From IMG/VR virus record IMGVR_UViG_2695420523_000013: a stretch of 27,206 bases of DNA; one strand, 5' to 3'. This document shows positions 1 through 3,000 of the stretch, piece after piece (the stretch's first letter is position 1; each line of letters starts with the position of its first letter). The position numbers are program-made. This stretch comes from a virus. Its lineage: Duplodnaviria; Heunggongvirae; Uroviricota; Caudoviricetes.

Positions 1-3000
1 GGTGTGTCATACACCACGTCAGCGGTGGGGACGGGATACTGGTTACTGCAGCTGCTGGACAAAGTCTCTCCGTCCCAGTGGGTGGCGATAGGTGTGCTGG
101 GGAGTCTGCTGTTTGGCCTGCTGACGTATCTGACTAACCTGTATTTCAAAATTAAAGAGGACCGTCGTAAGGCGGCGCGGGGAGAGTAAAGCGATGAAGA
201 AAAAATACGAACTGGTTGTTAAAGGGATAAATAATTACCCGGATAAGATTACTGTTACTGTGGCACTGGAAATTGGTGGGTATCCGTCACTGTTGTTGCC
301 AGATGTGGCGATTAGTCTTGACCGTACTGAAGGTGCCACGCTGGAGTTTTACGAAGCTGAGGCGAAAAAGCAGGCGAAGCAGTTTTTCATGGATGTTGCT
401 GCCGGGTTATGTGAAGGGGATGGTCCGTTGCCGGAAAAGCGGCCCCGTAATTTTAGAGGCGCAGGATGTGTTGATAACCTACAGAGGAAAACTACCGGGA
501 ATAATTACTGGTTCTCTGAAGACTCCACCGCTGGCCTGAAGACTTAACATATCCAGGGATTTGAAATCGATAAACCCTGATAAATATCCATGAACGCAAA
601 AATCAGATACGGCCTGTCGGCTGCCGTTCTGGCGCTGATTGGTGCAGGGGCGTCTGCGCCTGAAATCCTCGACCAGTTTCTTGACGAAAAAGAAGGTAAC
701 CACACCACGGCATACCGTGATGGTGCGGGTATCTGGACCATCTGCCGCGGTGCCATCCTGGTGGATGGTAAACCTGTCGTCCCGGGCATGAAGTTGTCGA
801 AGGAAAAATGCGACCAGGTTAACGCCATTGAACGTGATAAGGCGCTGGCATGGGTGGAGAAAAACATCAGAGTGCCACTGACCGAACCCCAGAAAGCGGG
901 GATTGCGTCATTCTGTCCGTACAACATTGGTCCCGGTAAGTGTTTCCCGTCTACGTTTTACAGACGAATTAATGCAGGTGATCGAAAAGGTGCCTGCGAA
1001 GCGATTCGCTGGTGGATTAAGGACGGTGGCAGAGACTGCCGTATCCGCTCAAATAATTGCTACGGTCAGGTATCCCGGCGAGACCAGGAAAGTGCGCTGG
1101 CGTGCTGGGGAATCGACAGATAAGCAGAATATTTTGCTGAAAAATGACGTTGGCCAGCGCGGACGGATAACACGAAATCCTGCGAACTGGCAAAATGTAA
1201 GTGAATAAAGTTAGGCAGATTATTTTACGCAGAGGCACCGTAATGGTGCCTTTGTCATTTCTGCGCTTCGCACAAGCGTAAATAAACCAAAGAACCTTTC
1301 AGGATGAGCCCTGGTGGATAACCGGCAGTGGTCTGGTTAACCCTCTTTGGGCTGGTTATTCCTGTGCGCAGGGTTCATCACTAAAAGGAATCAACCATGA
1401 AAGAGATGATTTCTGTCGATCATGAAATATCCATGAGTAGTCTGGATTTTCTGAATAACATTATTAATCCAGCCCGGGCAGAAGCCGGAGAAGTCCCTCA
1501 TGAACCGCGTAAGTTTCTTGCAAAAATTGAGGATGAGCTAGAGCGTGATGGAACCGGAAAAAAATTCCGGTTAAACAATAACCAGACAAGAACGGCATAC
1601 TATGATCTGGATTTTGACCAGATGATGCTCGTTGGCATGAGGGAGTCAAAGGCCGTTCGTCGTTCTGTGCTGGCAAGACTCAAAGCGATGCATGGTATTC
1701 AGATCCCCCGGACTTTACCTGAGGCGTTGCGATTTGCGGCAAAACTGGCTGAACAGAAAGCAGTGCTGGAAAATCAACTGGCAATAGCAGCGCCGAAGGC
1801 TGAATTTGTTGATAACTATGTTGGAGCATCTGGTCTGATGGGATTCCGGGAAGTTGCTAAGTTACTCGGTATCAAAGAAACCGATTTCCGGCTGTTTTTG
1901 TTGGAGAACGGAATAATGTATCGCCTCGCTGGAAAAATGACGCCTTACTCGCATCACCTGGATGCGGGGCGGTTTAGCGTGAAAACGGGCGAGGCGGGCA
2001 ATGGTCATGCTTTTACGCAGGTTAAATTCACCCCAAAAGGTGTTCAGTGGATTGCTGGTCTGCTTGCTGCATGGAGAGCTACCGCAGCATGAAGATGATA
2101 AAAATGGACTGGAAATTTTTGCTGGTCTGGCTGATTCCGTTTTTATGGGTGGTTGCCCGGTTAATTACTGCTATTAAGAGGTAAAGATGTCAGACAAACT
2201 CATAATGCTGGCGAAGGGCCTTTGTGTAATCGTCGGTATTTCATTTTCACTAATGCTGGTTGCTCTTTTTCTTTCCATAACCTGGATGGCGTTGACTTCG
2301 GCAGGGCTGGTGGGGTGAGCATAAACCGAATGCTTTCCACGTTTACCGTTATTCTGCTGGTGGTCTGTGGTGCGCTGTGGCTGGCAACAGACCATTACCG
2401 TGATAACGCCATCACCTACAAAGCGCAGCGCGATAAAAAAGCCAGAGAGCTGGAGCTGGCAAACGCAACCATTACTGACATGCAGCAGCGCCAGCGTGAT
2501 GTTGCTGCGCTTGATGCCAGATACTCAAGGGAATTAGCCGATGCGAGAGCTGAAAATGAAACTCTGCGTGCTGATGTTGCCGCTGGTCGTAAGCGCCTGC
2601 GGATCAACGCCACCTGCTCCGGTACCGTGCGTGAAGCCACCGGCACCTCCGGCGTGGATAATGCAACCGGCCCCCGACTGGCAGACACCGCTGAACGGGA
2701 TTATTTCATCCTCAGAGAACGGTTGATGACAATGCAGAAGCAGCTGGAAGGGGCACAGGACTATATCCGCACTCAGTGCCTGAACTAAGTTTTGCTGATG
2801 CGCCGTATCGTCGCTGTATTCCCTCATTAACAGAGACCGCAGCCCGACAGGGAGACTCCTCTGCGCGAGTGTGCGGGGATAATCAAAAACGATACACACC
2901 GGGGTTTACCGCGTTAACGGAGCGCGGCGTTGTCCCCTCATGGTCGCTGGTCCGGTACGATGGTGGAAGAAACCGAACGTTCATTTCTCGTTATTTGTCA

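Follow-up and report, generated by a model that had tools for sequence, protein, structure and literature searches.

The closest described lysis cassettes, those of the phage 21/P27/933W type, consist of S, R and Rz/Rz1, with S abutting R and no gene between them. In lambdoid phages, morons in the Juhala/Hendrix sense (lambda lom and bor, HK97 gp15) are optional inserts of lower GC content between late genes. Phage-encoded modulators of RNase E or the degradosome include T7 gp0.7, T4 Srd and phiKZ Dip; gp0.7 is a kinase, and Dip targets the C-terminal scaffold of RNase E.

A further relevant system is YdfR of E. coli K-12 (P76160), encoded in the Qin prophage between essQ and rrrQ. In a two-hybrid library screen, YdfR(1-72) was recovered three times, while full-length YdfR gave a two-hybrid signal only with Rne(1-597) (Göpel et al., RNA Biol 2026; PMC13232886). 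Strep-YdfR co-purified chromosomally encoded Rne(1-598)-FLAG together with DNase-resistant nucleic acid, and overexpression of YdfR changed few transcripts and left growth unimpaired (PMC13232886). The contact between YdfR and RNase E was thus reported in one study, from two-hybrid assays and from in vivo co-purification without a nuclease control (PMC13232886). Since the pull-down was carried out without nuclease treatment, the contact might be bridged by RNA.

We analyzed a 27,206-nucleotide stretch of viral DNA (IMG/VR record IMGVR_UViG_2695420523_000013), referred to here as the window, which carries holin, lysozyme, Rz/Rz1, terminase, portal and tail genes and Lom. The earlier note had predicted in it a gene of the ydfR (DUF1327) type with its own ribosome-binding site, placed between a phage-21-type holin and an SAR endolysin as ydfR is between essQ and rrrQ, and of no established function. 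A Pfam HMM search with the product of this ORF returned PF07041/DUF1327 with an E value of 4.6e-41 (139.4 bits over residues 1-85, the gathering cut-off being 25 bits). The match is far above chance; the ORF is a genuine gene, and its membership in the DUF1327/YdfR family is essentially certain. The product also matched four PHROG families at E<=3e-32, and all four are labelled 'unknown function', in line with the earlier note. The ATG lies 4 nt past the holin stop, with the Shine-Dalgarno-like stretch GGGGAGAG ahead of it. Thousands of E. coli genomes carry the RefSeq annotation of the trio as 'class II holin family protein | YdfR family protein | lysozyme', and the described ribosome-binding site and gene order were both confirmed. 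Table 1 lists the features of the region.

Table 1. Features of the ydfR-type gene and its neighbours in the window
Feature	Position	Strand	Basis or remark
Class II holin gene, 3' part (phage-21 S-type, pinholin family)	4..189	+	Contig starts inside gene
Shared ribosome-binding stretch GGGGAGAG, holin stop TAA and 4-nt spacer	176..193	+	Sequence, P27 alignment
YdfR/DUF1327 ORF	194..547	+	ATG start, 117 aa / 117 codons
Conserved YdfR/DUF1327 core, aa 1-76	194..421	+	Pfam, AF2, stand-alone 72-76-aa homologues, GC
Linker and C-terminal tail, aa 77-117, predicted disordered	422..547	+	pLDDT <50, homologue tails
1-nt insertion site	443..449	+	GCGGCCCCG here vs GCGCCCCG or GCGGCCCA elsewhere
Short/long-form junction CCACCG	525..530	+	blastn, window vs L001, L003, L008, L034, L050, L054
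AT-rich spacer, 35.7% GC, without obvious Shine-Dalgarno	548..589	+	42 nt, ahead of endolysin start
Endolysin, T4-lysozyme-type muramidase, SAR-like N-terminus	590..1123	+	Pfam, PHROG, N-terminal composition, triad

The flanking genes also agreed with the earlier description. The holin fragment matched PF04971 Phage_holin_2_1 'Bacteriophage P21 holin S' (E=6.5e-29) and PHROG 9876 'holin' (E=2e-40), and the endolysin matched PF00959 Phage_lysozyme (E=2.4e-24) and PHROG 7 'endolysin' (E=2e-62). The N-terminal stretch of the endolysin, YGLSAAVLALIGAGASAPE, is 58% Gly/Ala/Ser and weakly hydrophobic (KD17 1.69), and the enzyme has the triad E35-x8-D44-x5-T50 within the motif E35GNHTTAYRDGAGIWT. As judged from their sequences, the two proteins fit a pinholin/SAR-endolysin pair. 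They belong to the same holin and endolysin families as those of the phage 21/P27/933W-type cassettes, whereas in the window the YdfR gene stands between them.

The window copy is an ordinary member of the family, and its place in this lambdoid prophage of EHEC/EPEC type is the usual one: family members lie in the late region of lambdoid or siphovirus prophages of Enterobacterales, and so does this gene. The region 1-1195 has 97% DNA identity to Stx1a-, Stx2c- and some Stx2a-converting phages, and in many Shiga-toxin phages the YdfR-family genes adjoin the genes for toxin and virion release. The family has already been catalogued (Pfam DUF1327, RefSeq 'YdfR family protein'), and the novelty here is a rare frameshift in the tail alone. 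Taken as a whole, the locus is best explained by a moron-like late accessory factor that most probably acts on RNase E, at its catalytic half, a reading to which we give a probability of about 40%.

Structure prediction, proposed in the earlier note, gave a confident fold for the core. When the full protein was modeled by AlphaFold2 from a shallow alignment, residues 1-72 had pLDDT values of 73-88, while those of residues 73-117 stayed below 50; when the core alone was modeled from a 27-sequence alignment, pLDDT reached 90.4 and pTM 0.79. The predicted core has three strands (5-14, 18-27 and 37-43) followed by one long helix (50-71), a beta-beta-beta-alpha arrangement that it has in common with K-12 YdfR, together with the Pfam family and gene order. 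It is acidic (pI 4.85). No transmembrane segment was found in the 117-aa protein (maximal 19-residue Kyte-Doolittle mean 1.18, GRAVY -0.45), and the product has neither a membrane segment nor a signal or lipobox of the kind expected of a membrane lysis factor.

A profile search found only 88 relatives at E<=0.001, many of them fragments, among 1.84 billion representative proteins clustered at 50% identity. The most distant members are stand-alone proteins of 72-76 residues. In alignments, the most distant relatives share Tyr5 and the invariant Tyr53-Glu54, all of which are present in the window core. Even in lineages with as little as about 25-30% identity, the core is unbroken and its fold is predicted with confidence, and the functional unit of the family is this core of about 75 residues, the tail being expendable. 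Among solved structures, searches with the single sequence and with the 27-sequence profile found no relative, the best E value being 0.18, and a search of predicted viral structures gave no significant match.

We then compared cassettes with and without the gene. Of 5426 complete E. coli genomes, 2943 carry DNA similar to positions 150..600, at up to eight places each. Among 370 phage records that share the holin/endolysin DNA, tblastn found the DUF1327 core in 101, while about 270 have the same holin and endolysin DNA without a DUF1327 gene; the gene therefore does not co-occur obligatorily with its cognate holin and endolysin. In P27, Stx2 II, PA36, ST2-8624, VT2phi_272 and most Stx2a phages, the stretch covered by the two pieces that match is about 804 nt long, as against 1200. 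The lysozyme ATG of P27 lies 4 nt past the holin stop behind the same GGGGAGAG, which is exactly the position of the DUF1327 ATG in the window. Relative to P27-type cassettes, the insert of about 400 nt comprises the ORF, the AT-rich spacer, which the P27 alignment places within the inserted module, and a slightly different 5' end of R. The base composition of the insert also deviates from that of its surroundings, the core having 45.2% GC and the spacer 35.7%, compared with 55.4% in the holin, 53.9% in the endolysin and 55.2% in the whole window.

Distant members of the family were located by profile protein search and contig look-ups, and none of them stands in a lysis cassette. The relative in a Sodalis prophage directly precedes tail gene L. 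In metagenomic contigs, its neighbours are L on one side and a K-like gene (Prok-JAB/NlpC_P60) on the other, and a Serratia-type contig has it between the genes for the tail-assembly chaperone and the tape measure. Because cassettes occur with and without the gene and relatives are found among tail genes, a dedicated lysis role is disfavored, and the same two facts point to a position-independent, late-expressed function in host interaction.

The earlier note had asked whether the gene serves lysis or is a moron. The evidence favors a moron-like gene: it is present or absent between conserved neighbours, its base composition deviates, and, as with lambdoid morons, relatives are inserted at varied sites of late operons. 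The gene falls short, on the other hand, of the strict definition of a moron, since scans assigned it neither a promoter nor a terminator (three of each, with 3.6 and 3.4 expected by chance). No promoter-like site was found on the plus strand, and the sole plus-strand terminator-like match lies inside the ORF. Unlike lambdoid morons, the window gene is placed behind the holin-proximal ribosome-binding site, and its expression is probably that of the late operon, the repressed prophage being an unlikely source. Its optional presence, the variable position of its distant relatives and its base composition make us fairly confident that the gene is accessory and outside the lysis functions; it looks like an optional passenger, not needed for lysis, rather than a part of the lysis machinery. 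In this respect, the combination of presence/absence with take-over of the ribosome-binding site, together with the relatives in tail modules, is modestly useful in favoring 'moron' over 'lysis factor'.

It could still be proposed that the gene modulates the timing of lysis, as a cytoplasmic factor that targets the pinholin (perhaps through the C-terminal tail that the pinholin exposes to the cytoplasm), influences how the SAR endolysin is released, or sets the S:R expression ratio, R being separated in the last case from the holin-proximal ribosome-binding site. The order holin-YdfR-endolysin was found in 160 of 160 E. coli-type loci examined, always between a class II holin and the lysozyme, and the RefSeq annotation agrees. 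The insertion also moves R off GGGGAGAG and leaves it with an AT-rich leader without a Shine-Dalgarno sequence. Since the order is kept in all 160 loci, a lysis-linked role is possible for the E. coli-type sub-lineage, for example through displacement of R from a strong ribosome-binding site. As a general explanation, however, control of lysis timing is quite unlikely, given the roughly 270 of 370 records that have homologous S and R and lack the gene, the distant relatives in tail-gene clusters, and the lack of a membrane segment in the product. Moreover, phage 21 lyses with S21, R21 and Rz/Rz1 alone. From K-12, ydfR is listed in a CPRG envelope screen (Paradis-Bleau 2014, as cited in PMC13232886), which would fit a lysis-timing role, but its overexpression caused no growth defect (PMC13232886).

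It could also be proposed that the gene is a functionless, slowly decaying passenger, the remnant of a longer ancestral gene of up to 329 aa, kept only through hitch-hiking in a recombining lysis module. The frameshift in the window allele bears on this possibility. The earlier note had described a 117-aa ORF; while the ORF exists, its length and residues 86-117 are peculiar to the window allele and not typical of the family. The last 32 residues (86-117) are in a shifted frame owing to a 1-nt insertion in the context AAGCGGCCCCGTAA, at about 443-449, where 80 related viral-contig loci in a haplotype table read AAGCGCCCCGTAA, AAGCGGCCCATCA or similar, one base shorter. Removal of one C in silico restored exactly the usual 114-aa protein, and 114 aa is the length of most homologues. 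These end in ...EKRP-VILEAQDVLITYRGKLPGIITGSLKTPPLA, while the window protein ends in ...EKRP-RNFRGAGCVDNLQRKTTGNNYWFSEDSTAGLKT. The canonical tail VILEAQDVLITYRGKLPGIITGSLKTPPLA is still encoded in the window in another frame, within an ORF at 273..539, and the insertion moves the stop from 539 to 547. Compared with the 114-aa allele of Stx1a/Stx2c-converting phages (BP-4795, phage 86, YYZ-2008), the window allele has an identical core, one extra base and 32 changed residues at its end. The window tail (RNFRGAGC...GLKT) also differs from that of the common EHEC/Stx-phage allele (VILEAQ...TPPLA) and from the helical 30-residue tail of K-12 YdfR.

The frameshifted allele is rare. The frame and insertion of the window were found in none of 160 IMG/VR viral-contig loci, and a 71-nt probe across the site, searched against 5426 complete E. 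coli genomes, matched 3851 places, the best at 70/71 and none exactly. Databases nevertheless contain the identical 117-aa protein under the name 'phage protein [Escherichia coli]' (CTW35622.1 and CTW75539.1, four contigs, the longest of 27,206 bp like the window), which indicates that the allele, though rare and confined to a few draft assemblies, is natural rather than a single sequencing error. We considered whether the C-run might support dual coding, programmed frameshifting or phase variation and rejected this, given 0 of 160 loci and 0 of 3851 places. The few database proteins that share the tail frame of the window (P0004, P0005, P0006, P0058 and P0090) are singletons that enter it at differing upstream positions, which also argues against programmed frameshifting. 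Among unique substitutions in the tail, 12 were synonymous and 22 non-synonymous in the canonical frame, compared with 5/25 and 8/24 in the other frames. Because the core is the conserved unit and the tail is expendable, the frameshift in the window allele is probably harmless, and its occurrence fits the view of a dispensable tail.

The C-termini that follow the core are highly variable in E. coli phages, with observed lengths that include 103, 104, 114, 169, 176, 183, 268, 287 and 329 aa. At the junction within the tail, 450-990 additional bases are present in the long forms (176-329 aa), where the window has the short form, and the C-terminal extensions of the long forms gave only chance-level coiled-coil matches in Pfam. 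Truncated, fused or frameshifted copies are numerous in databases, which is compatible with weak selection. A decaying passenger would account for these broken copies and for the frameshifted window allele, for a 450-990-nt deletion that separates short from long forms, and for a family so small that it has 88 representatives among 1.84 billion proteins. Decay is nonetheless no more probable than control of lysis timing: the core has stayed unbroken, with a confidently predicted fold, down to distant lineages, synonymous changes are in excess in the gene frame, the frameshifts fall in the tail and none in the core, and the gene is carried by more than half of the complete E. coli genomes, in up to eight copies each.

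The reading that we prefer, a moron-like late accessory factor, leads to RNase E through the core. The segment of K-12 YdfR that interacts with RNase E, residues 1-72, coincides with the conserved core, and over aa 1-74 the window core is 47% identical to K-12-type YdfR. From these comparisons we infer RNase E as the target of the window homologue as well, with a possible effect on RNA decay. In the proposed mechanism, a moron-like gene would have entered the late operon precisely at the S/R boundary and taken over the ribosome-binding site after the holin, so that the protein would be made late in infection alongside the lysis proteins. This small acidic cytoplasmic protein would then most likely bind a host target through a protein-protein contact of its core. 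The target would be RNase E, in its catalytic N-terminal half, with RNA perhaps taking part in the contact, and the phage could in this way adjust RNA processing or decay while its late transcript of about 25 kb is expressed. The RNase E mechanism taken by itself is tentative, and we consider it more doubtful than the preferred reading as a whole.

If the K-12 data transfer, the window protein would resemble T7 gp0.7, T4 Srd and Dip in being a small phage protein that contacts RNase E during infection, although it has no sequence or fold relationship to any of the three. Unlike Dip, YdfR was reported on the N-terminal catalytic half of RNase E (PMC13232886). A genuine contact would mean that temperate coliphages have a common route by which to touch host RNA decay. 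It is unlikely, but conceivable, that YdfR/DUF1327 proteins are RNase E modulators encoded by phages and form a widespread class that had so far gone unrecognised. Such a modulator would be an acidic beta-beta-beta-alpha module of 75 residues, portable between the lysis and tail modules of late operons, that docks late in infection on RNase E at its catalytic half; the processing of the long late transcript might thereby be protected or re-routed. One or more copies of a modulator of this kind would then be present in over half of all E. coli genomes.

The association with RNase E could instead be indirect if YdfR were itself an RNA-binding protein with a truncated dsRBD-like fold, in which the N-terminus of the helix binds structured RNA. 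The start of the helix, E-A-K-K-Q-A-K, recalls the KKxAK motif of dsRBDs, but the domain lacks helix alpha-1 and is acidic, and other family members do not conserve the motif. The alpha1-beta1-beta2-beta3-alpha2 fold combined with a profile match, which characterizes the dsRBD (Pfam dsrm), was not found. A true dsRBD relationship is unlikely, and direct RNA binding of this kind is an improbable account of the gene. A benefit to the lysogen or an anti-defence function (superinfection exclusion or inhibition of a host defence), expressed from the prophage or early after induction, is just as improbable, since PADLOC gave no match for the window protein and the long forms and only a chance-level one (E=0.02) for one homologue, upstream promoter-like sites were not above chance, the ORF follows the holin stop by 4 nt, and almost no ydfR reads were seen by RNA-seq in growing K-12 (PMC13232886).

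For the remainder of the region, a search of Rfam found no RNA families in positions 1-3400. An Ant/KilAC gene lies 3' of the endolysin, followed by Rz with an embedded Rz1. Antisense ORFs are present at 235..339, 479..703 and 544..927.

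The leader at the endolysin start (window 548-592) is AT-rich and contains no recognizable Shine-Dalgarno sequence, whereas in phages without YdfR the endolysin ATG lies 4 nt past the holin stop codon and is preceded by GGGGAGAG. Judged from this comparison of sequences, insertion of YdfR may lower the translation of the endolysin or uncouple it.

The C-terminal part of YdfR is itself altered in this phage. A G/C run at window positions 443-449 contains a one-base insertion that shifts the reading frame of the tail. The insertion was found in none of the 160 viral-contig loci and in none of the complete E. 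coli genomes searched. A protein with the frameshifted tail has been recorded from four contigs (CTW35622.1 and CTW75539.1).

Elsewhere in the family, YdfR reaches 264 to 329 amino acids in some phages (related loci L003, L034, and L001; database proteins P0128 and P0153), with the core followed by a coiled-coil-like segment and then a C-terminal domain. At least two unrelated C-terminal domains occur among these long forms, and they had no match to Pfam or PADLOC. In the related database protein P0162 (112 amino acids), a different, coiled-coil N terminus is joined to the usual YdfR tail. The variable C termini together with this chimera suggested that the YdfR slot recombines often.

Distant DUF1327 genes also stand alone in lambda-like tail-gene clusters of Sodalis, Serratia-like, and metagenomic prophages, where they encode proteins of 72 to 76 amino acids and adjoin gpL, lie between gpL and gpK, or separate the tail chaperone gene from the tape measure gene.

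The features of the window and of these distant loci are listed in the table.

Features of the window and stand-alone DUF1327 genes
Feature	Location	Remarks
GC-rich hairpin	window ~1233-1251	AGGCACC-GTAAT-GGTGCCT; gap 3' of endolysin
Ant/KilAC antirepressor-family gene	window 1397-2092	between endolysin and Rz/Rz1
Hydrophobic ORF	window 2187-2318	43 aa; immediately ahead of Rz
Rz spanin	window 2222-2788	TTG as listed start (2222)
Rz1	window 2541-2726	embedded in Rz, +1 frame
DUF3950 protein	window 2981-3241	minus strand
HNH endonuclease	window 3223-3684	
Prohead protease-major capsid fused ORF	window 6153-9666 region	645 aa; Peptidase_S78 + Phage_capsid
SseK/NleB-family type III effector	window 25518-26498	full-length; Pfam E=1e-170
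IS3-family transposase orfA	window 26813-27206 region	HTH_Tnp_1
ALIL frameshift pseudoknot	within window 26813-27206	3' of orfA; Rfam RF01497, 104.7 bits
Stand-alone DUF1327 gene	L081 4001-4219	
Stand-alone DUF1327 gene	L083 4001-4219	
Stand-alone DUF1327 gene	L085 4001-4231	

The Ant/KilAC gene is a second optional insert of the lysis cassette, and phage P27 also has it. Since the PHROG Rz profile match begins only at residue 35 of the listed Rz ORF, the true start of Rz is probably downstream of the listed TTG.

The small terminase subunit gene directly follows the DUF3950 and HNH endonuclease genes. Unlike the gene order of phage lambda, the portal gene comes after the fused protease-capsid ORF.

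Downstream of the tail-fibre gene, the SseK/NleB-family gene, whose family comprises arginine GlcNAc-transferases, is prophage cargo, and it places the host in an attaching-effacing lineage of E. coli. The contig end interrupts the IS3-family orfA/ALIL element, and the contig probably terminates there because this insertion sequence is repeated.
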